The notes: a model not told the origin generated them from the letters alone. A stretch of DNA of 25,158 nucleotides from an uncultured Candidatus Saccharibacteria bacterium (GCA_964351125.1 CAYGMI010000007.1:1-25158), one strand, 5' to 3'. Shown: positions 4,915 through 15,090, counted from the stretch's first letter. Made by a program: numbers and translations.

Positions 4915-5922
4915 CTAGAAAATTCCCAAAGAATAAATCCACAATGCAGTAAGCGCTGCTACCGCTGAAGTTAACCAAAATCTCTGCACTACTTTCGCCT
5001 CAGACCAGCCAATGGCTTCGAAGTGATGATGTATTGGAGCAATCCTGAATATCTTTTTCTTCAAGAACTTGATCGAAAGTATCTGACTTGCGCTCGAGAA
5101 TAATTCCACCCAGAACACAAGACCTAGTATTGCAAAAGGCAATACTGTGTCGGTGACTAGGGCAAACAAAATCAACGCAAATGCGATCGGAAGCGTACCG
5201 GTACCTCCCATAAATACACGCGCTGGATTAATATTGAAGTACAAGTATACAAACGAACTACCCAACATCAAACCCAGATATGGCCATAGGTCAGTTCTAC
5301 CAGTAAGTCCGGCAAATCCAATATAAGCAATAATTGCAATTATAAATTGACCAGTGACCAACCCATCTGCTCCATCTGTTATCTCGATACCATACATTGC
5401 CAAAACCATCGCAAATGCTCCTAGAACCAATATTGGAAGAGTCATATATACAGTTATCCCCAAGATTGTAATTTGAGTTATTCCTATCGACTCTACAACT
5501 ACCAATAAGAAGAAACAGATTAGATATAGAACTAATAATTTTCCGATCCTCCAGGCAAAACTCTCTTGGAATAGTCTAAATCTTTCATCTACTTTTCTGG
5601 CAAATACTAACGATCCTTCAATGAATCCATATAGGGTGGTTAGAATCCAACCAGCAATAAAAAGTGACTTAAGTGGAGATGCAGGTATTAAAAGTAGCGC
5701 CCATACTAGTACGCTAATTGAAATCATTAGTCCACCCATCGTCGGCGTTCCTGATTTATGAGCATGAATCTTAATGAATTCAGCATTCATATTATTGCCC
5801 ATCAGGACATGCCGCACCACAATATTTGCTCTGTATAGTAAGAAGATTAGTACTGGTGCAATAATTGCCGTGGATGTAAATCCCACAATTGCAAAGTTCG
5901 TAAAGTCAGTTAGATTTCCCAT
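4915..5922 (-). CDS. mraY: MraY-family (GT4, phospho-N-acetylmuramoyl-pentapeptide transferase) homolog with substituted catalytic aspartates
   Basis: 335-aa multi-TM protein; HKSGTPTMGG, TDGADGL, YFNINPARVFMG, IFRIAPIHHHFEAIGWSEAKVVQRFW are MraY signatures. The canonical DD reads EG (E102/G103) and MGD reads MGG (G240), so family is secure but activity is not. Confidence 0.85.
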   Translation of the reverse strand: MGNLTDFTNFAIVGFTSTAIIAPVLIFLLYRANIVVRHVLMGNNMNAEFIKIHAHKSGTPTMGGLMISISVLVWALLLIPASPLKSLFIAGWILTTLYGFIEGSLVFARKVDERFRLFQESFAWRIGKLLVLYLICFFLLVVVESIGITQITILGITVYMTLPILVLGAFAMVLAMYGIEITDGADGLVTGQFIIAIIAYIGFAGLTGRTDLWPYLGLMLGSSFVYLYFNINPARVFMGGTGTLPIAFALILFALVTDTVLPFAILGLVFWVELFSSASQILSIKFLKKKIFRIAPIHHHFEAIGWSEAKVVQRFWLTSAVAALTALWIYSLGIF

Positions 5923-6532: not shown

Positions 6533-7360
6533 ATGGAAAAGACCCAAGACACGATAACTGTTGATATTAGACCATTCATTTGGCCGGTAACATCAATCAT
6601 TATCGCTTTAATTCTAAGTGCTACAGTGATCATCACTGCCAACATTTTGGTTGGAGGTGGCGGAGCTGTAAGAGGCACTACCACAGCAACTGGTGATACA
6701 GGCACTACTACGACACCTCAAGCTGTCCCAGCAGGAGCTAGTATTGAGAGTATTAGAGGATTGTTCACAGATGGTAATTTGTACTTTGGAGATCCAAACT
6801 CAGATTTACTATTCGTAGAGGTCTCTGACCCAAGCTGTCCTTATTGTCATATTGCAAGCGGACTAAACCCAACTCTAAATGCCTCAGCTGGGGCTCAATT
6901 CACTCTAGTTCAAGACGGTGGAACATATGTTGCTCCAGTTCTAGAAATGAAAAAACTTGTTGATCAGGGAGAAGCCGCATTTGTTTGGATATACTCAAAC
7001 GGACATGGTAACGGAGAATTAGCTACGCAAGCACTTTACTGTGCAGATGAGCAAGGTAAGTTCTGGGAAGCACATGACAAGATGATGACTGCAGAAGGTT
7101 ATGATGTAATCAACGAAGAAGTGCAGAATTCAGTTGCAAATGCTCCAAGAATGGCTGAATTCCTTTCAGGTGCTGTTGACGCAGGTCAGCTTCAAGCTTG
7201 TTTGGAGGCCGGAACTTATGCCTCAAGACCAGCAGAAGATCAGGCTGTCGCTGGAGGACTAGGAGTATCCGGAACACCTGGATTCTTTGTAAACGAAACT
7301 AATTTTGCAGGGGCATATAGTTGGACAGACTTACTACCAACTGTTGAACCTTTCCTGTAA
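6533..7360 (+). CDS. Membrane-anchored DsbA/thioredoxin-family disulfide oxidoreductase
   Basis: N-terminal TM helix, Thr/Gly-rich linker, SDPSCPYCH (CxxC), QGKFWEAHD, GVSGTPGFFVN (cis-Pro loop). Confidence 0.9.
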   Translation: MEKTQDTITVDIRPFIWPVTSIIIALILSATVIITANILVGGGGAVRGTTTATGDTGTTTTPQAVPAGASIESIRGLFTDGNLYFGDPNSDLLFVEVSDPSCPYCHIASGLNPTLNASAGAQFTLVQDGGTYVAPVLEMKKLVDQGEAAFVWIYSNGHGNGELATQALYCADEQGKFWEAHDKMMTAEGYDVINEEVQNSVANAPRMAEFLSGAVDAGQLQACLEAGTYASRPAEDQAVAGGLGVSGTPGFFVNETNFAGAYSWTDLLPTVEPFL

Positions 7361-7426: not shown

Positions 7427-7497
7427 TGCCGGATCGTCTAATGGCAGGACTGCGGTTTCTGGATCCGCCAATCTAGGTTCGAATCCTAGTCCGGCAA
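7427..7497 (+). tRNA. tRNA-Gln(CUG), CCA not encoded
   Basis: Acceptor TGCCGGA/TCCGGCA (U1-A72); D arm GTCTAATGGCAGGAC; anticodon arm GCGGT-TTCTGGA-TCCGC (anticodon CTG); T arm CTAGG-TTCGAAT-CCTAG; discriminator A. Confidence 0.93.
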
Positions 7498-7505
7498 TAG
7501 AAACT

Positions 7506-8183
7506 ATGTCATACATCCTAATCCTACTACTAACAATAGCTTTCCCCTTGTTTCGTTCATTCGAATCGAAACTGAAGTTCTATAAGAAGTGGCCAATTGT
7601 CATCGCAGCGGCAGTACTAGTTGGTATCCCCTTCTTGATTTGGGATATGATCTTTACAGGCTGGGGCGTTTGGGAGTTCTCTGCAGAGCATATCTTAGGA
7701 TTTAGAATAGTGGGGCTACCACTAGAAGAGATACTATTCTTTGTAGCCGCACCCTTTAGCTGTATTTTTATTTGGGAGTCAGTTAAGTATTTCGTCAAGA
7801 ATAAACGCCTAGGATTTGTACAATTCGTTTGGATTCCCGCAATGCTCTTACTCTATATTGCTGCTACTAACTCAGGACTGCTATATACCTTTACAGTTTT
7901 CTCAATTACTAGCTTATTTCTATTTGTGATGAATGTGCTGAACGAAGAGGTTATAGACTCAAATAGATTTTTGATTACCATGGGATTCTGTTTTATAGGG
8001 TTTGTAGCAATCAACTATTTGCTTACATCTATCCCTGTTGTTAGCTATGATAATTTAGAAAACCTTCAGATTAGAGTTTTTACAATTCCAATTGAAGATT
8101 TCGTATACAACTTTCTGCTTGTTGCAGCCAATATTGTCGTATATGAACATATTCTCAAATACTTAAACAATAAAAACAAATGA
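7506..8183 (+). CDS. Lycopene cyclase, fused CrtYc/CrtYd-type (two lycopene-cyclase domains)
   Basis: Integral membrane protein with IWDMIFTGWGVWEF..GLPLEEILFF in domain 1 and ENLQIRVFTIPIEDFVY in domain 2 (PxE[E/D] motifs); adjacent to crt genes. Confidence 0.88.
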   Translation: MSYILILLLTIAFPLFRSFESKLKFYKKWPIVIAAAVLVGIPFLIWDMIFTGWGVWEFSAEHILGFRIVGLPLEEILFFVAAPFSCIFIWESVKYFVKNKRLGFVQFVWIPAMLLLYIAATNSGLLYTFTVFSITSLFLFVMNVLNEEVIDSNRFLITMGFCFIGFVAINYLLTSIPVVSYDNLENLQIRVFTIPIEDFVYNFLLVAANIVVYEHILKYLNNKNK

Positions 8184-9307
8184 ACATTCAAGAGTTTATT
8201 CAGCTACTCGTACTAGGTTCTATTGCCCTAAGTTTACTGCCCCTATCAGTAGCAACAATTAACTTACTAACTGCTAGACGAGTTACTAAACGCAAATTCG
8301 AAGGAGATGCAAAGCTTGCTGTGTTAATCCCCGCAAGGAACGAAGAAGGTAACATTGGAAACATTCTCTCCGATCTAGTGGGACAGACATACACTAAATT
8401 CTCGGTATTCGTACTAGATGATCATTCCGATGATGCCACAGCTGAGGTCGCATCTAAATACAAACCACAACTCTTACAATTAGAGGTTATAGAGGGTAAG
8501 GGGCTTCCATCTGGATGGCTAGGAAAGCCCTGGGCATGTCAGCAATTAGCAGAAGCGGCAGCAGATTTTGACCAGCTCTTGTTTATCGACGCGGACGTGA
8601 GGTTAGAAAAAAATGCCGTAGAATCTGCTTTAGAACTGTATAGGGAATCTAATGCCGACCTACTGTCATGCTTTCCTACTCAACTCACAGAAACTGTTGG
8701 TGAAGCCTTCTTCGTAACCATGGTGAATTGGGTGCTCCTCAGTATGCTACCACTTAGGTCGGTAGAGAGATATAAAATGCAGAGTTTGAGTGCTGCAAAC
8801 GGCCAGTTCATGTTATTCAATAGTGTTGCATACAAACAGATAGGACAGCACAATGCAGTTAAAAATCGTAACACCGAAGATCTTGAATTATCTATTTTAA
8901 TCCAAAAATATAAGAAAAAATTAGTAGTCTGTTTGGGTGCAAATTCAATTTACTGCAGAATGTACAAATCTGCAGAACAAGCTCTCAATGGGATTAGCAG
9001 AAGTTATTACATCGGTTTTGGCGCCAAAGGCCCAGGTTTCTTGATGTCTCATATGTTGATTGTCTATGCGTACGTTATGCCTTTACTTTTCTTAAGTACC
9101 TCTCCCCTTTGTTTTATTCCAATAGCACTCACGCTTGCTACTCGCACAATCGTTGCTCTGCAGTCTAATAGAAATATATTGTTCGACTTAAGCATTCACC
9201 TAGCACAAATGTTTGGGACCTTAGGACTCGCAACACACTCATATTATATGTTTAGAACTAACTCCGTCACATGGAAGGGAAGAAATATAAATATCTCAGC
9301 TCACTAG
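8180..9307 (+). CDS. Glycosyltransferase family 2, CruC/CrtQ-like carotenoid glycosyltransferase
   Basis: N-terminal TM; IPARNEE, LDDHSDD, GWLGKPWACQQL, FIDADV, ANGQFMLF, TED, CRMY; lies between the cyclase and the hydratase. 4-nt ATGA overlap with the cyclase gene. Confidence 0.85.
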   Translation: MNIQEFIQLLVLGSIALSLLPLSVATINLLTARRVTKRKFEGDAKLAVLIPARNEEGNIGNILSDLVGQTYTKFSVFVLDDHSDDATAEVASKYKPQLLQLEVIEGKGLPSGWLGKPWACQQLAEAAADFDQLLFIDADVRLEKNAVESALELYRESNADLLSCFPTQLTETVGEAFFVTMVNWVLLSMLPLRSVERYKMQSLSAANGQFMLFNSVAYKQIGQHNAVKNRNTEDLELSILIQKYKKKLVVCLGANSIYCRMYKSAEQALNGISRSYYIGFGAKGPGFLMSHMLIVYAYVMPLLFLSTSPLCFIPIALTLATRTIVALQSNRNILFDLSIHLAQMFGTLGLATHSYYMFRTNSVTWKGRNINISAH

Positions 9308-9912
9308 TTGTAGTTTTCTACTTGGTTGGAATAGCCGGACACCTTATAGGTACTTCTAGGGTTTTGTTTTTGCAGCTTACACCTTTTATTTTAGTCTTAA
9401 CGTCCATACTAGTGGTTGGCGACTTCATACTGTCTCAAAAACCCAAGCTCAGAACAAAGATTGCACTTTGGCTGGCTGTAGTGGTACTCACAACTTTTGT
9501 ACTAGAGGCATTTGGTACAAATACTGGAAGCTTATTTGGTCAGTACAATTATGGACCAACTCTTGGGGTTAAGTATTTGGATACCCCCTTAATTATTGGA
9601 GCTAACTGGATAATTATTATTCTTGGTAGCTATAGCTTTCTAAAGTACCTTGCAGTCACTAAGAACTTAGCTTTCTTGAGCGCAGTGACAGCAGTTTGCG
9701 TTGATGTATTTTTAGAGATCACAGCTGTAAAACTAGACTATTGGAGTTGGAGCAACAACCAAGTACCTGCTCAAAACTACATCGTATGGTTCTTGATAGT
9801 TTTTATTGCTGTATACTTTCTGGAGAAACTAAATCCCAAGACTGCAAAACTACTAGTACCGATATTTATAATGCAATCACTGTTTATAGTATCACTTGCT
9901 TTGCTGCTATAG
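9271..9912 (+). CDS. cruF: Carotenoid 1,2-hydratase, CruF/DUF422 family
   Basis: Multi-TM; LEAFGTNTGSLFGQYNYG..LG..TPLIIGANW, VDVFLE..AV.LDYWSW, VPAQNYIVWF match the family pattern. Start overlaps the GT2 end by 37 nt. Confidence 0.85.
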   Translation: MEGKKYKYLSSLVVVFYLVGIAGHLIGTSRVLFLQLTPFILVLTSILVVGDFILSQKPKLRTKIALWLAVVVLTTFVLEAFGTNTGSLFGQYNYGPTLGVKYLDTPLIIGANWIIIILGSYSFLKYLAVTKNLAFLSAVTAVCVDVFLEITAVKLDYWSWSNNQVPAQNYIVWFLIVFIAVYFLEKLNPKTAKLLVPIFIMQSLFIVSLALLL

Positions 9913-9914
9913 AT

Positions 9915-10940
9915 TTAGGACTCTATTGCTTCGGGAGCTCTGAGGTAAGGCATCATTAACTTCGGGACTCTATCCATCCTCATACCGTAAAAAAATACTG
10001 TGGTAAAGGCAGAAAGTAATGCAATAGTCTTGTCTACTTTAGCCGGCTTTAGTTTTCCTTCCAACACGATGAAGGGGTCGTCTAATATCTGCTCGCAAAC
10101 TCTTTGGTACATTACTGTTGCTGCTACTACTGGAACCGCCACGCCTGGACTAAAACTAACGAGTTCATTAAGTGTCTGCATTCCTTCTTGATTCCAATAC
10201 TGATACCTATTGACCTGCTTACGGATAAACTCAGCAAATAGATCTTGATTGTCTTCACTCTGACAATAAAGGGCAAAGTTATATGCGTTCATTATTGGGA
10301 ACTCTGCTCTATTAACTGCTTCTATGAACCCAGGATCGTAATCCTCTAGAGGAAAATAGTTCCTGCCTAGATTACTGTCCTCTTCTATATCTCGAATAAA
10401 GTTTATGTACTGAAATGCAAATCCAAGCTGATGTGCAGCGTAATAAGAGGCCTCGTCATCTTTCGGAAACCCAAAGATCCTTGCACACATGTATCCAATC
10501 ACACCTGCCGCTCCATGGATGTAAGACTCAATTTCTTGAATACTCTCATATCGCGCATCTCCTAGATCCATCTCCATCGAGATAAAAAAGTCTTCTACCC
10601 AGGCCCTTTCGAAGTCATATTCGTTAAAAATACCGATAAAATCATCCAGAACAGGTATTCCTGTTCTTTCACCGGAATCTAGTGCATGCCAAAATCGTGC
10701 CTTAAACTCAAGGTACTTTTGCTTATTTAACTCCAAGTCTTCTTCTGCGTCTACAAAATCATCGGCAACTCTCACAAATGCATAGAATACCTTTATTTTC
10801 TCGCCTACTATAGAAGGAAATCTCTCTGTGGCACTACTAAAGGTGTTACTTCTCTCTCCCATTACTTGCGTAGGAGTTACACCAACCAGATCTGAAAGCA
10901 GATCCGACTGAAGATTTATTGTTTCGCTATTTGTAATCAT
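9915..10940 (-). CDS. crtB: Phytoene synthase (phytoene/squalene synthase family)
   Basis: FYAFVRVADDFVD (DDxxD) and QYINFIRDIEED..LGRNYFP motifs, SMEMDL, YIHGAAGVIG; downstream of and overlapping crtI by 14 nt. Confidence 0.9.
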   Translation of the reverse strand: MITNSETINLQSDLLSDLVGVTPTQVMGERSNTFSSATERFPSIVGEKIKVFYAFVRVADDFVDAEEDLELNKQKYLEFKARFWHALDSGERTGIPVLDDFIGIFNEYDFERAWVEDFFISMEMDLGDARYESIQEIESYIHGAAGVIGYMCARIFGFPKDDEASYYAAHQLGFAFQYINFIRDIEEDSNLGRNYFPLEDYDPGFIEAVNRAEFPIMNAYNFALYCQSEDNQDLFAEFIRKQVNRYQYWNQEGMQTLNELVSFSPGVAVPVVAATVMYQRVCEQILDDPFIVLEGKLKPAKVDKTIALLSAFTTVFFYGMRMDRVPKLMMPYLRAPEAIES

Positions 10941-12384
10941 TTTGGATTTCTTTTGCTACAACTTCTCCAGAAATTATCGTCATTGGAAGACTTACTCCTG
11001 GCACCGTATACTGTCCAACATAGTACAGACCTTTTAGTTTCTTACTCTTGTGACTTGGACGGAATACAGCTGTCTGGAATAATGTATGTGCTAAGCCAAA
11101 TGCTCCACCTTTATAGGAATTATAGTCTCTTTCAAAGTCGGTAAGAGCATAGCTGCGTTTGAGGATAACATGATCTCTTATAGATTGAGATGTTATGTAC
11201 TCTAAGTCATCCATTATATCATTATAATATTCCTCTCTGATATTTTCTGTATCTTCAAGCCCTGCAGCGATGGGTACAAGTATATATAAATTCTCCATTC
11301 CTTTAGGAGCAACGTCTTCGTCAGTTTTAGAAGTCATACTCACATAGTACAAAGGCTTATCTGGCCACTTTGGATCTTTAAAAATATCATCAAAGTGTGT
11401 ATCCCAATTTCTATGGAGGAAAAGTGTATGATGCTCAAAATTGTCTAGTTTCTTATCTATTCCCAGAAAGAACAAAAGTGTAGAAGGCGACAGTACTTTC
11501 TTATCCCAGGACTGAGCAGTGTAGTCAGGACTGTCTAATAGATGCTGATCGACATATTGATAATCAGCGTTAGCTACCACAATATCTGCTTCGTATTTCT
11601 GCTTAGATACCTCTACGATTTTCTGCCCCGCATCGGTTTCGTATATTCTCGTTACTGGGGAATTGTAAATAAATTCAACCCCTAGTTCTTCTGCGAGCTT
11701 TACCAAACCTTCAACTGCTGCGTACATACCTCCTTTGGGATACCAAATTCCCAATCCAAAATCCGCATGCGAGATTAAAGAGTAAAGTGCCAAAACGTTC
11801 TGAGGTGAACCACCCAAGAATACCACCATAAACTCTACAATCTTCTGTAGTCTTGAATCTTTAAAGTAGCTCGCTACATGATTATGGAAAGTACTAAACA
11901 CATTTAGCTTTAGACCATTCCACAATAGCTTTGGGTTTACAAAATCGACAATCGAGTTATAGACCCTATAGATGTATTCGTGGGAAAGCTCGTACTTGGT
12001 TTCTGCCTTCTTTAGATATTGCTTCAACTTTTGTCCAGCGCCTGGCTCAATAGACTCAAATAGGTCTATATTCTTTTCCAGATCGGCACTAACATCGTAG
12101 AACTCATCTTTATTGAAATAGACACGGTAAGAAGGATCAAGCCTCTCTAACTCTATGTATTCGCTCATTTCTTTCCCAATAGATGCAAAGAACCGCTCGA
12201 ACACATCTGGCATCATAAACCAAGAAGGCCCAATATCGAATGTGAATCCATCTTTCTTCCACTGTGCTGCCCTTCCTCCTGCTTCAGCATTCTTCTCTAT
12301 CAACTGGACTTCATACCCTGCATAAGCAAGCTGAATTGCCACCGACAAACCACCGAATCCTGCGCCAATAACAATAACTTTCAT
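10927..12384 (-). CDS. crtI: Phytoene desaturase (CrtI family)
   Basis: VIVIGAGFGGLS FAD-binding motif, FTFDIGPSWFMMPDVFERFF, FLGGSP, WYPKGGM, FEHHTLF, YKGGAFGLAHTLFQTAVFRP, YYVGQYTVPGVSLP. Confidence 0.92.
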   Translation of the reverse strand: MKVIVIGAGFGGLSVAIQLAYAGYEVQLIEKNAEAGGRAAQWKKDGFTFDIGPSWFMMPDVFERFFASIGKEMSEYIELERLDPSYRVYFNKDEFYDVSADLEKNIDLFESIEPGAGQKLKQYLKKAETKYELSHEYIYRVYNSIVDFVNPKLLWNGLKLNVFSTFHNHVASYFKDSRLQKIVEFMVVFLGGSPQNVLALYSLISHADFGLGIWYPKGGMYAAVEGLVKLAEELGVEFIYNSPVTRIYETDAGQKIVEVSKQKYEADIVVANADYQYVDQHLLDSPDYTAQSWDKKVLSPSTLLFFLGIDKKLDNFEHHTLFLHRNWDTHFDDIFKDPKWPDKPLYYVSMTSKTDEDVAPKGMENLYILVPIAAGLEDTENIREEYYNDIMDDLEYITSQSIRDHVILKRSYALTDFERDYNSYKGGAFGLAHTLFQTAVFRPSHKSKKLKGLYYVGQYTVPGVSLPMTIISGEVVAKEIQNDYK

Positions 12385-12495
12385 ATAATAGAAATTTAAT
12401 TAAATTAGTTAACTATTTTAACAACCTTTTGTCAAACCTACCACTTTACATTGTAATTCAAAAGTCATACCATCTATATATATTACACAGTCGAA

Positions 12496-13425
12496 ATGCA
12501 AAGCAGATACTCTAGAATAGCAATAATTGGAGCTGGAATGGTTGGATCAACCATAGCTTATGCAAGCATGATCAAAGATCTTGCAGCAGAGATTATCCTT
12601 ATTGATGTAAACAAACAGCGACAGGAAGGAGAAGTTCTAGATCTATCACATGGGGCTTTCGGTACAGATACAGGTGGTATTTATAACGGCGACTACACAG
12701 ACTGTAGGAATGTTGATGTAATTGTAATCACAGCTGGAGCCAGCCAGAAGCCTGGCCAAACAAGGCTAGAACTTATCGAGATAAATGCGGGGATACTTAG
12801 AGATATAGCCGAAAGTATTGGTGAAATTCAGCAGCATACGAAGATACTGGTAGTATCTAATCCCGTAGATGTTCTTACAATGCTGGCAAAGGAAATATTC
12901 CCCGTAAGTAAGAACCAAATATTTGGGTCAGGTACATACCTAGATACATCTAGACTCAGACTACTACTTTCTCAAAAGCTACAGATAAGTGCTCACAACA
13001 CTCATGCATATGTAATAGGAGAACATGGAGACTCCGCATTTGTGCCTTGGAGCATTGCCACTGCAGCTGGCGGGCGGAAAATACAAGACATTTTATCAGA
13101 AGAAGAGCGAAACGAAATTGAACAAGGAGTCAGAAAAGCAGCCTACGAAATAATATCCAAAAAGGGCTCGACCTACTACGGAATCGGAATTGTAGTTGCA
13201 GAAATATTAGAATCCATACTATTTAATAAAAAGAAAGTGATAACTGTTTCTACGATCCCTGGGGCTGGATACGGTATAACTGATATCTGCCTAGGTATTC
13301 CATCGATAATTAGTGCAAATGGAATTGAATCTGTATGGCAGCTAAGCTTAGAAGAAAGCGAGATAGAGAAACTGCAGAATTCAGCAGGCTTACTATCAGA
13401 GGCGTACAGATCGATATCCAGATAG
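12496..13425 (+). CDS. ldh: L-lactate dehydrogenase
   Basis: IIGAGMVG, AGASQKPGQTRLEL (Gln specificity residue of LDH, not the Arg of MDH), VSNPVDV, GTYLDTSR, GEHGDS, KGSTYYGI. Confidence 0.93.
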   Translation: MQSRYSRIAIIGAGMVGSTIAYASMIKDLAAEIILIDVNKQRQEGEVLDLSHGAFGTDTGGIYNGDYTDCRNVDVIVITAGASQKPGQTRLELIEINAGILRDIAESIGEIQQHTKILVVSNPVDVLTMLAKEIFPVSKNQIFGSGTYLDTSRLRLLLSQKLQISAHNTHAYVIGEHGDSAFVPWSIATAAGGRKIQDILSEEERNEIEQGVRKAAYEIISKKGSTYYGIGIVVAEILESILFNKKKVITVSTIPGAGYGITDICLGIPSIISANGIESVWQLSLEESEIEKLQNSAGLLSEAYRSISR

Positions 13426-13456: not shown

Positions 13457-13948
13457 ATGATTACTATACTTAATGCAGAAATCAATATTCTGGGAATTAT
13501 ACTAGCGACCATTGTCTCTATGGGAATTGGAATGCTTTGGTATGGACCACTGTTTGGTAAAATATGGATGGCTTTAGTAAATAAGAAACTTGAGGATCTT
13601 GAAGCCAAACCTACCGACTACTTATCTAATATTATTGCTGGGATAATATCTGCATTTGTAATTTCCCTTCTATATTCGTACATCTCTACAGCTTCAGCTT
13701 TTTTTGCACTTTCTCAAGCATTCGGTGCAAGCGAGACTAGCGCTATACTCTCAGGTGAATGGAGCTTATGGTTAATCATGCTATTCATTCCATTTGTCTG
13801 CTGGACAGCCTTTACATTACCCGTATCAATTAACAGGATTATTTGGGAGGGCGGAAGAAAGAAATTGGTAGCACTAAATGCAGCGCACCAATTTGTTACA
13901 TTCTTGTTTATGTCAATAGTAATAGCTCTAGTACTAAACTTTTCATAG
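13457..13948 (+). CDS. DUF1761-family membrane protein
   Basis: IN..GIILAT..SMGIGMLWYGPLFGKIW N-terminus and LNAAHQFV C-terminal helix fit DUF1761 as I recall it; 4 TM. Confidence 0.7.
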   Translation: MITILNAEINILGIILATIVSMGIGMLWYGPLFGKIWMALVNKKLEDLEAKPTDYLSNIIAGIISAFVISLLYSYISTASAFFALSQAFGASETSAILSGEWSLWLIMLFIPFVCWTAFTLPVSINRIIWEGGRKKLVALNAAHQFVTFLFMSIVIALVLNFS

Positions 13949-13966
13949 TCAACAAATCTATAACTA

Positions 13967-15058
13967 CTAGGTCATTCTGACTTCAGCATCAATAAAGTCT
14001 TGAATCTCGCCATCTAAAACTGAGTCAGTTTGACTGGTTTCTACGTTTGTACGCAAGTCTTTGACAAGCTTATACGGCTGAAGTACATAGTTTCTAATTT
14101 GGTTTCCCCAGCCAAATTCTTTATGTTCACCTTTTAGTTTAGCGTCTTCCTCTGCCTGTTTCTGCTCTTCTATTTGTACTAGCTTAGACTTAAGTAGCCT
14201 CATGGCAGCTTCGCGATTTGCCGATTGAGATCTATTAACCGAACTACTAACCGCGATTCCTGTTGGTTTATGAACAATCCTAACCGCAGTCGCCACTTTA
14301 TTCACGTTCTGTCCTCCTGCTCCGGAGGATCTGACAGCACTAAATTCAATGTCTTCATCCCTTATTTCAATATCAATTTCTCCATCTACTAGTGGCATTA
14401 CTTCAACCCCTGCAAAGCTTGTCTGTCTTAGTCCAGCAGAATTAAATGGGGAGTTCCTTACCAGTCGATGAGTTCCGTGCTCACGCTTTAGGTATCCGTA
14501 GGCAAAACTTCCTTCAACCTCGAGAGTAATTGTTGAGTAACCCGTTTCTGTACCACGCACCTCATTGACTACTGTATGCTTCCAATCAACTGAATCAAAG
14601 TATCTGGTATACATCCTAAGTAGCATTGCAACCCAATCATTTGCTTCTGTACCTCCTTGTCCGGCATGGATAGAAATGATCGCACCATTTTCATCGTACT
14701 TACCCGACAGAAAAGTTTGCAATTCTAGGTCATCAATTTCTTTTGCTAGATCCTTAAACTCTGCTTCTACTATTTTGAGCAAATCAGTGTCTCTATCTGT
14801 TAATTCCGCAATGTCGGACACAATGGAAAGCCTTTTATTATCAATGGTTTGAACTTTAGTTAGCAGATTACTAATATTGCCAATTTTGCGCATCACAGAT
14901 TGAGCCGAGTCTGGATTAGTCCAAAAACCTTCATTCTTCGAGGCGTCTTGAAGCAACTCCAGTTTCGAGTTTTTATCGTCAAGGTCTAGCTGCTTAATTA
15001 TTGCGTCAAGTCTGTCAGAATAATCTTCAAATGTTTGTTTTAATTCGTGTATATCCAT
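13967..15058 (-). CDS. prfB: Peptide chain release factor 2, single in-frame ORF
   Basis: [25 protein letters not shown] (SPF, RF2-specific), [11 protein letters not shown] (GGQ), WGNQIRNYV. Start set at ATG 15058 rather than TTG 15076. Confidence 0.96.
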
Positions 15059-15065
15059 ATACTGT

Positions 15066-15071
15066 AGATTA
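15066..15071 (-). promoter_or_regulatory. Putative -10 (TAATCT), leaderless prfB
   Basis: TAATCT ends 7 nt before ATG 15058; only 32 nt separate the divergent start codons. Confidence 0.4.
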
Positions 15072-15090
15072 GACAAATGCTAGCACAGAT

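Follow-up and report, generated by a model that had tools for sequence, protein, structure and literature searches.

A probable chromosomal carotenoid gene cluster in a Dojkabacteria (CPR/Patescibacteria) genome and the question of its precursor supply

Relation to described carotenoid gene clusters

In green sulfur bacteria the glucosyltransferase that acts on chlorobactene and OH-gamma-carotene is CruC, and cyanobacterial myxol glycoside synthesis involves CruF and CruG. Within the window, by which we mean the whole 25,158-nucleotide stretch analysed here, five intact ORFs between positions 7506 and 12384 encode a fused CrtYc/d lycopene cyclase, a CruC-like family-2 glycosyltransferase (GT2), a CruF-type hydratase, a CrtB-type synthase and the desaturase CrtI (Table 1). 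Their coordinates agree exactly with the block delimited by an initial annotation of this DNA, and the five gene identities proposed there are borne out by Pfam and NCBIfam family matches. As with CruC and CruG, a family-2 glycosyltransferase would act on a carotenoid hydroxyl predicted to be made by CruF. The best full-length NCBIfam alignments of the GT2 are to HpnB (126 bits) and CruG (93 bits), both under the equivalog cut-offs. For CruG (NF045692) that cut-off is 600 bits, and so, despite a model that aligns end to end, the protein is not a CruG orthologue by the NCBIfam standard.

A related cluster lies on a 278-kb JGI contig from outside the CPR (L176), in the order CrtI-CrtB-cyclase-CrtD-acyltransferase-GT2-CruF-desaturase, and we take it to be of the monocyclic carotenoid glycoside (ester) type of Salinibacter, Rhodothermus and Ignavibacteria. 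Both loci have CrtI, CrtB and a fused cyclase of the Lycopene_cyc family, as well as GT2 and CruF genes that overlap, and the GT2 of the window is 39% identical to its counterpart over 94% of its length. However, the window lacks a separate CrtD, a CruD-like acyltransferase and any ketolase/hydroxylase of the FA_desaturase type, and its genes are ordered as two convergent operons. Bacteroidota clusters of the form CruF...CrtI-CrtB-CrtYcd (Marivirga, Roseivirga, Cyclobacteriaceae and others) hold homologs of four of the five genes, with identities of up to 52% for CrtI, up to ~41% for CrtYcd, up to ~39% for CruF and 31-42% for CrtB. Their CrtI likewise belongs to the CrtID type, although in a tree the window's CrtI is placed outside the fully supported Bacteroidota clade, and a GT2 homolog was found in 0 of 80 Bacteroidota loci.

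Carotenoid genes have already been reported in Patescibacteria from Lake Baikal, where lyeJ, crtD and cruF were interpreted as a bacterioruberin pathway (PMC9948471). The locus resembles that case in its CPR host and in its CrtI/CrtD-family and CruF genes, but it has a complete synthase-to-glycoside set (CrtB, cyclase and GT2) and no LyeJ-type elongase within the cluster; neither Dojkabacteria nor this gene set is reported in the Lake Baikal paper. Moreover, the cluster is not rare, as the same modules recur in Dojkabacteria and Patescibacteria. Of the 221 Dojkabacteria species, 21 have SQS_PSY genes, and crtB/crtI-type genes are found in ~10% of the class; among sampled Patescibacteria, 45 of 401 species (~11%) have SQS_PSY genes. 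The closed genome G059 carries a CrtI-CrtB-CrtYcd-CruF module and G140 a PPS-CrtI-CrtB-GT2-CruF module, whilst three other class relatives (G039, G040 and G105) have pairs of a CrtD-like gene and CruF. The initial annotation knew of no characterised example in the CPR, and held that a cluster already common in the lineage would count against its reading. The latter is partly the case, given these counts; as to the former, crt genes do recur in the CPR, and we found no experimental characterisation of Patescibacteria carotenoid genes in the literature searched.

The five genes and their predicted product

Table 1. Features of the cluster, the remaining slot cargo and the adjoining backbone
Feature	Position	Strand	Basis
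DsbA/thioredoxin-like gene, last conserved backbone gene before slot	6533-7360	+	PF13462
tRNA-Gln(CTG), left edge of slot	7427-7497	+	ARAGORN
crtYc/d, fused heterodimer-type lycopene cyclase, 225 aa	7506-8183	+	PF18916, TIGR03462
CruC-like GT2, 375 aa	8180-9307	+	PF00535, DAD motif, homologs, context
cruF-type carotenoid 1,2-hydratase, membrane protein, 213 aa	9271-9912	+	PF04240
crtB-type phytoene synthase, 341 aa	9915-10940	-	PF00494, Asp-rich motifs, crtI adjacency
crtI, phytoene desaturase, CrtID type, 485 aa	10927-12384	-	NF058655, TIGR02734
L-lactate dehydrogenase (LDH), slot cargo	12496-13425	+	TIGR01771, 335 bits (cut-off 303)
DUF1761 membrane protein, slot cargo	13457-13948	+	PF08570, 76.6 bits
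prfB (RF2), first conserved backbone gene after slot	13967-15076	-	TIGR00020, 433 bits

The start codon of crtYcd lies 8 nt beyond the end of the tRNA gene. The GT2 gene overlaps crtYcd by 4 nt and cruF overlaps the GT2 gene by 37 nt; on the opposite strand crtI overlaps crtB by 14 nt, and crtB and cruF converge with a gap of 2 nt. This arrangement, in which two convergent operons with overlapping genes bring together five functionally linked members, is far beyond chance.

The cyclase carries two tandem Lycopene_cyc/CarR domains in one membrane protein of ~225 aa (PF18916, 105 bits in two stretches; TIGR03462, 92 bits against a cut-off of 39.4), and is 34-41% identical to cyclases of Dojkabacteria and Bacteroidota crt clusters. 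The GT2 combines the family fold (PF00535, 58.8 bits) with a DxD motif, DAD at residues 137-139. Several of its nearest homologs (35-41% identical) are named 'chlorobactene glucosyltransferase' by JGI, and cruF adjoins the GT2 gene in G140 and in the contigs of two of the nearest outside homologs. The Caroten_synth domain of CruF scores 73.6 bits (cut-off 25), and the protein shares 30-43% identity with CruF-like members of crt clusters from Dojkabacteria and Bacteroidota. It lies under the bisanhydrobacterioruberin hydratase equivalog cut-offs (TIGR03460, 60 against 154.7 bits; NF041333, 44 against 300), which model the archaeal C50 enzyme, and by these scores is a bacterial relative rather than that orthologue.

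CrtB matches SQS_PSY (PF00494) with 135.5 bits, where the cut-off is 26, and both of its Asp-rich motifs are intact (DDFVD at 60-64 and DIEED at 184-188). On the CrtB equivalogs NF042419, NF045921 and NF045686 it scores 64-66 bits where 480-550 are required, and it scores higher on HpnD (115 bits), still under the HpnD cut-off. Since the CrtB cut-offs are not reached, the assignment rests on the family and on the adjoining, overlapping crtI. CrtI exceeds the cut-off of the 'bifunctional phytoene desaturase/3,4-desaturase' model NF058655 (681.9 against 640 bits) and that of crtI_fam (TIGR02734, 462 against 238). It has NAD_binding_8 and Amino_oxidase domains with an FAD-binding GxGxxG motif (GAGFGG at 7-12), and reaches 52% identity with CrtI proteins of Bacteroidota as well as with one from Dojkabacteria. 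For CrtB, CruF and the GT2, substrate specificity rests on context, because all three score under NCBIfam equivalog cut-offs.

In the predicted pathway CrtB would join two GGPP molecules into phytoene, which the CrtID-type CrtI would take to lycopene by four-step desaturation. The fused CrtYc/d would then cyclise one end to give gamma-carotene; this one-end outcome is predicted from the cluster, as sequence alone cannot tell it from cyclisation at both ends. CruF would add water at the uncyclised psi end, producing the 1'-hydroxy form, CrtI may introduce a 3',4' double bond to yield 1'-hydroxytorulene, and the CruC-like GT2 would put a sugar on the 1'-OH. As no acyltransferase, ketolase or ring hydroxylase lies within the cluster, the expected product is a simple monocyclic carotenoid 1'-glycoside that carries no acyl group and would sit in the membrane. 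The product class of the initial annotation, a monocyclic 1'-hydroxy-carotenoid glycoside, is reasonable.

Host genome and genomic slot

The host belongs to the class Dojkabacteria of the CPR/Patescibacteria. Named matches to its RF2, at 52-61% identity, comprise nine Candidatus Dojkabacteria, one Doudnabacteria and one labelled only 'bacterium'. The genome is of 1.18 Mb (96.6% completeness, GC 40.42), assembled as a low-coverage MAG of 91 scaffolds (word depth 3-5), and kinship codes assign it to a class that counts 221 species, with genome sizes of 0.5-1.9 Mb throughout. Neither ribosomal protein L30 (PF00327) nor a fatty-acid synthase/ketoacyl synthase (PF00109) was found in this incomplete genome, with controls positive. 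Together with the synteny of the flanks, these features confirm the CPR host that had been suggested. Exact copies of the CrtI and GT2 proteins occur in GCA_030429885.1, whose accession falls within those of a biofloc MAG study; a single Dojkabacteria MAG appears in the supplement of that study, with a GC of 40.43, against 40.42 here. The habitat of the genome is aquaculture biofloc.

Immediately after tRNA-Gln(CTG) comes a variable slot, filled here by the cluster, the LDH gene and the DUF1761 gene, in a backbone otherwise conserved in the family. The tRNA gene occupies the same backbone position in the same-family genomes G001, G002 and G004; the DsbA/thioredoxin-like gene is syntenic in G002 and G004, and prfB in G001-G004. 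The order UvrD-MraY-like-orf136-DsbA-tRNA-Gln / slot / RF2-RsmA-orf272 is largely preserved in G001, G002 and G004, with backbone genes sharing 26-61% amino-acid identity (most 43-61%), and the slot cargo is different in each of the three. In the regions fetched around their slots, LDH was absent and the DUF1761 gene had no match. LDH is without a known role in the pathway.

Precursor supply and alternative readings

The interesting part of the finding is the precursor gap. No MVA or MEP marker, polyprenyl (GGPP) synthase or UppS was found in this low-coverage assembly of 91 scaffolds: profile searches with PF00348, PF01255, PF02401, PF00368 and PF00288 were negative with positive controls, and so was tblastn with class proteins for precursor genes. 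The sole precursor-related gene found is a type-2 IPP isomerase (IDI-2; 369 bits against a cut-off of 281). Thus, of the genes that the initial annotation proposed to search for, idi is present in this form whilst GGPP synthase, MVA and MEP genes were not found, and its suggestion that the cell may make its own carotenoid glycolipid is unsupported. Three of four same-family genomes carry a polyprenyl synthase, and its absence here is unproven because the syntenic site adjoins a scaffold gap (C5 6982-6991). Judging from the markers not found, the pathway would be unable to start from central metabolism; C5 units, and possibly GGPP as well, would be supplied by a host or by neighbouring cells, or a GGPP synthase would lie in unassembled DNA. 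We regard the locus as probably a genuine chromosomal five-gene carotenoid cluster of a Dojkabacteria genome, with precursors from elsewhere or from unassembled DNA.

HMG-CoA reductase and IspH are both missing from 15 of the 21 CrtB-bearing Dojkabacteria genomes, and 19 of these 21 have a polyprenyl synthase. IDI-2 occurs in 11 of the 21 as against 11 of 200 CrtB-negative genomes and, within its family, the genome studied here alone has crt genes or IDI-2. Because of these counts we tentatively suggest, at less than even confidence, that carotenoid synthesis from imported precursors could be a recurring Dojkabacteria trait, in which these episymbionts would balance host-derived C5 units (IPP/prenyl diphosphates) with their own IDI-2 and use them for a membrane carotenoid glycoside. 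If true, this would represent a defined, testable transfer of isoprenoid precursors between host and CPR cell.

It could be argued that crt genes of a co-occurring Bacteroidota cell were joined to Dojkabacteria DNA during assembly or binning, an explanation that is close to refuted. The MAG has low coverage, the NCBI assembly of the organism breaks inside crtB (10613-10622) into two contigs that overlap by merely 10 bp, and the closest non-CPR CrtI proteins, at ~50% identity, are from Bacteroidota, one of them from the same biofloc project. Yet a Logan contig (10117-11048) bridges this break with zero mismatches, and crtB is in frame across it with one continuous Pfam alignment. This is the only suspect join, and it is bridged independently. 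Moreover, each of the two NCBI contigs has Dojkabacteria backbone genes plus crt genes, and the gene order of the flanks is shared with three genomes of the family. Among the Bacteroidota homologs found, none is more than 52% identical to any of the crt proteins, and CrtI lies outside the Bacteroidota clade. The composition of the cluster is native, with a tetranucleotide correlation of 0.939 (at the 72nd percentile among 191 windows across the genome) and a GC of 0.395 against 0.404 +/- 0.013 for the genome.

Without a source of GGPP the pathway may be idle, and the island could be acquired cargo that makes nothing and is being lost. The precursor genes not found, a variable slot with different cargo in each relative, and a stop codon interrupting crtB in G140, by which crt gene decay does occur in the class, all fit this reading. 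We nevertheless consider it quite unlikely: the five ORFs are full length with intact catalytic motifs and tight overlaps, the fully ameliorated composition indicates that the genes are not a recent arrival, and the genome, alone in its family, keeps an IDI-2 that would be useless without isoprenoid flux. Rather unlikely, too, is that the genes are correctly identified but yield another product, be it beta-carotene (maybe for retinal), acyclic lycopene di-glycosides or FPP-derived C30 diapocarotenoids. Such products would be consistent with a CrtB that scores better on HpnD than on the CrtB equivalogs, under all cut-offs, and with a cyclase whose regiospecificity is not predictable; Patescibacteria rhodopsins dependent on external retinal are also known (PMC9296517). 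However, CrtI exceeds a C40-specific equivalog cut-off, and rhodopsin and Blh had no match in this genome or in four crt-bearing relatives, with control genomes equally silent. In L176, a cluster of characterised type, GT2 and CruF occur alongside a single cyclase and a psi-end desaturase, as expected of a monocyclic layout.

The cluster and its place in the chromosome

Five of the 24 main ORFs in the window encode carotenoid enzymes; the coordinates given for them in the initial annotation proved exact, and their identities were upheld by Pfam and NCBIfam. They form two convergent operons of overlapping ORFs, crtYcd-GT2-cruF and crtI-crtB, with overlaps inside the operons of 4, 37 and 14 nt and a gap of 2 nt between the two. 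CrtB retains its Asp-rich motifs, the family-2 glycosyltransferase (GT2) its DxD motif and CrtI its FAD motif, each of them intact. A promoter and terminator scan returned site counts not above those of shuffled sequence; at this overall level, a -10-like element can be noted against the start of crtI.

Coordinates of the features discussed, in the window unless a genome (G), scaffold (C) or fetched locus (L) of class Dojkabacteria is named
Feature	Position	Strand	Observation
MraY-like gene	4915-5922		148.6 bits, under the MraY equivalog cut-off of 192
tRNA-Gln(CTG)	7427-7497		Ends 8 nt before crtYcd
Five carotenoid genes	7506-12384
crtYcd, fused two-domain lycopene cyclase		+	PF18916 twice; TIGR03462 above cut-off
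GT2, family-2 glycosyltransferase		+	Top full-length alignments HpnB and CruG, both under their cut-offs
cruF, Caroten_synth/CruF-family membrane protein		+	Pfam/NCBIfam
crtB, SQS_PSY synthase		-	Pfam/NCBIfam
crtI		-	NF058655 'bifunctional phytoene desaturase/3,4-desaturase', 682 bits against an equivalog cut-off of 640
-10-like element	12385-12412	-	TATTAT abuts the crtI ATG; TTAACT 16 nt upstream of TATTAT
Contig 80, GCA_030429885.1	5554-10622
Contig 7, GCA_030429885.1	10613-25111
Overlap of contigs 80 and 7	10613-10622		10 bp
Logan contig	10117-11048		Zero mismatches
Type-2 IPP isomerase and Fe/Mn superoxide dismutase	G000:C34:10944-12564 (L168)		Adjoining genes
Terpene cluster, G002	L129:5477-9563		Polyprenyl synthase, class II (squalene-hopene-cyclase-like) cyclase, class I terpene synthase
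Terpene cluster, G001	L130:7980-11407		As in G002
Split crtB, G140	G140:C19 (L131:9399-10202)		TAA stop; ORFs of 116 and 150 aa
Tandem CrtI-CrtB-CrtI, G021	G021:C13 (L100:10-3606)		Two CrtI copies on different tree branches

A chimeric assembly would join foreign carotenoid genes to unrelated flanks, and the NCBI assembly GCA_030429885.1 is indeed split within crtB. Depth at this point is only 3-5, which accounts for the fragmentation. A chimera is opposed by the Logan contig that bridges the split and by crtB itself, which stays in frame across it and gives a single continuous Pfam alignment. Moreover, both NCBI contigs bear carotenoid genes together with backbone genes, and the composition is native: the tetranucleotide correlation of the cluster with the genome is 0.939 (72nd percentile of 191 windows), and its GC content is 0.395 against 0.404 +/- 0.013 for the genome.

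The left edge of the cluster is marked by a tRNA-Gln(CTG) gene that did not feature in the initial annotation. The order UvrD-(MBL)-MraY-like-orf136-DsbA-tRNA-Gln(CTG), then a variable slot, then RF2-RsmA-orf272-orf567 is largely kept in three further genomes of the family (G001, G002 and G004), each with different cargo. In G002 the slot contains NfeD/SPFH genes, in G004 permease/DUF1980/Big_5 genes, in G001 a Big_5 gene, and in the genome that bears the window (G000) the five carotenoid genes with LDH and a DUF1761 gene. The slot contains no integrase, and at its borders the 3' end of the tRNA has no att-like direct repeat. Given the linkage evidence and the conserved flanks around differing cargo, the cluster is therefore lineage-specific cargo in a tRNA-linked variable slot of a genuine Dojkabacteria chromosome.

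That the host belongs to the CPR, as first proposed, is borne out by its RF2 relatives and genome features, which place it in the class Dojkabacteria (WS6). Among the named sequences closest to its RF2 (52-61% identity), nine are 'Candidatus Dojkabacteria', one is Doudnabacteria and one is marked just 'bacterium'. In the protein Atlas, RF2 matched nothing more specific than generic bacterial clusters. G000 has a size of 1.176 Mb, spread over 91 scaffolds (completeness 96.6%, contamination 3.5%), with GC uniform at 0.40 and no match to L30 or ketoacyl synthase; genomes of the class span 0.5-1.9 Mb across all 221 species. Identical CrtI and GT2 proteins are present in GCA_030429885.1 (JAUIGJ01), whose accession falls within the range of 444 biofloc-aquaculture MAGs (PMC10582022). 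The supplement of a companion paper to that study lists one Dojkabacteria MAG, o__J137;f__JAEUSD01, with a GC of 40.43 (G000: 40.42). Since that MAG is smaller (1.007 Mb, 157 contigs, against 1.18 Mb), G000 appears to be another assembly of the same organism; it is likewise larger than GCA_030429885.1 (1.01 Mb), which appears to represent this organism too. Contigs from runs X1 and X2, filed under two study codes, are near-identical, and the two may be a single data set filed twice.

Spread and relationships of the carotenoid genes

Genes of the SQS_PSY family occur in 21 of the 221 species genomes of the class and in 10 of its 22 families, that of G000 included. CrtI homologs (E<1e-30) were found in 28/221, with none in the other four genomes of the family of G000 and one in the 27 of its sister family. 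Across the phylum, 45 of 401 evenly drawn genomes, several of them closed, contain an SQS_PSY gene. A pathway of this kind is patchy in the lineage, not rare, and is of an already known kind.

Cluster layouts in the class are mosaics of the same modules: CrtI-CrtB-CrtYcd-CruF in the closed genome G059, CrtI-CrtB-CrtYcd in G058 and G061, CrtI-like-CrtYcd-GT2 in G103, CrtD-like-CruF in G039, CruF-CrtI in G040 and G105, and PPS-CrtI-CrtB-GT2-CruF in G140. In the last, a stop splits crtB in an otherwise intact cluster, which may reflect a pseudogene or a sequencing error. A tandem arrangement was also seen in G021. The layouts of G039 and of G040 and G105 resemble the genes that a Lake Baikal study reported as 'bacterioruberin' genes of Patescibacteria (PMC9948471). 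Our literature search found no paper connecting Dojkabacteria with carotenoids.

The best non-CPR matches to CrtI, at 44-52% identity, all come from Bacteroidota or unnamed MAGs, and their loci read CruF...CrtI-CrtB-CrtYcd without a GT2 homolog. In a quick maximum likelihood tree of 75 CrtI-family proteins, Bacteroidota form a single fully supported clade to which the window CrtI is sister (support 88). Together they group (support 96) with the CrtI of four Dojkabacteria, G037, G047, G058 and G059, and the remaining Dojkabacteria sequences form a grade below. The tree and the native composition of the cluster exclude a recent transfer from Bacteroidota; as sampling covered Bacteroidota and Dojkabacteria, we claim no direction of transfer. 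The affinity of the GT2 differs. Its nearest homologs are 35-41% identical, several are named 'chlorobactene glucosyltransferase' by JGI, and those with a named source come from Ignavibacteria and Melioribacteraceae. Two of these homologs, whose loci were inspected, lie in GT2-CruF-desaturase modules, one within a full cluster, CrtI-CrtB-cyclase-CrtD-acyltransferase-GT2-CruF-desaturase.

Predicted product and precursor supply

From the established functions of these families, CruC, CruF and CruG among them, CrtB would convert GGPP to phytoene, CrtI phytoene to lycopene, CrtYc/d lycopene to gamma-carotene, and CruF gamma-carotene to 1'-OH-gamma-carotene. The last could pass to 1'-OH-torulene, provided that CrtI is truly a CrtID, and the GT2 would form the final 1'-O-glycoside. 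A literature search for 'CrtID' returned nothing relevant, so the sole basis for the 3',4'-desaturase step is the NCBIfam name. The cluster contains no acyltransferase, ketolase or hydroxylase, and its predicted product is therefore simpler than pigments of the salinixanthin type. Rhodopsin and Blh had no match in G000 or in four relatives bearing carotenoid genes, a weak result as the control genomes were silent too.

The initial annotation held that the cell may make its own glycolipid; as stated this is unsupported, as neither a polyprenyl synthase nor markers of the MVA or MEP pathways were found in G000. Polyprenyl synthase, UppS, IspH, HMG-CoA reductase and GHMP kinase (covering MVK, PMK and IspE) all lacked a match there, with control genomes positive in each case, and tblastn with the class's own proteins recovered none of the missing precursor genes. 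UppS and HMGR are absent from all five genomes of the family (G000-G004), and the MraY-like gene of the window scores under its cut-off. Salvage by isopentenyl phosphate kinase was ruled out, the sole AA_kinase protein of G000 being UMP kinase. G000 has no type-1 isomerase and is alone among the five in possessing a type-2 isomerase (IDI-2). Polyprenyl synthase is present in three of the four family relatives; in G002 its neighbour is a GAF histidine kinase, and the homolog of that kinase in G000 lies right at a scaffold gap (C5 6982-6991). The absence of the synthase from G000 may be an assembly gap. HMGR occurs in only 13/221 genomes of the class and IspH in 2/221; the lack of an IPP pathway cannot be put down to this MAG alone.

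Counted across the class (counts, not tests, since kin are not independent), genomes with CrtB carry polyprenyl synthase in 19 of 21 cases and IDI-2 in 11/21, against 11/200 for IDI-2 without CrtB, but HMGR in only 6/21 and IspH in 0/21. These counts point either to imported C5 units as the source of the carotenoids or to an IPP route not yet recognised.

CPR bacteria are usually pictured as lipid scavengers with nearly no biosynthesis. An intact, native-looking pathway to a membrane carotenoid glycoside qualifies this picture, as does the presence of such genes in about one in ten species of Dojkabacteria and of the sampled Patescibacteria, and suggests that cells of this kind tune or protect their own membranes. 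The sample was an aerated biofloc, and a superoxide dismutase adjoins the IPP isomerase. More telling is the contrast between a complete downstream pathway and an absent upstream supply: either an unrecognised IPP route is hidden in many CPR genomes, or prenyl precursors pass from host to symbiont, and both are testable.

In G001 and G002, which are without HMGR, IspH and UppS, the polyprenyl synthase belongs to a small terpene cluster that looks to be of the diterpene type, here in CPR genomes devoid of an IPP pathway.
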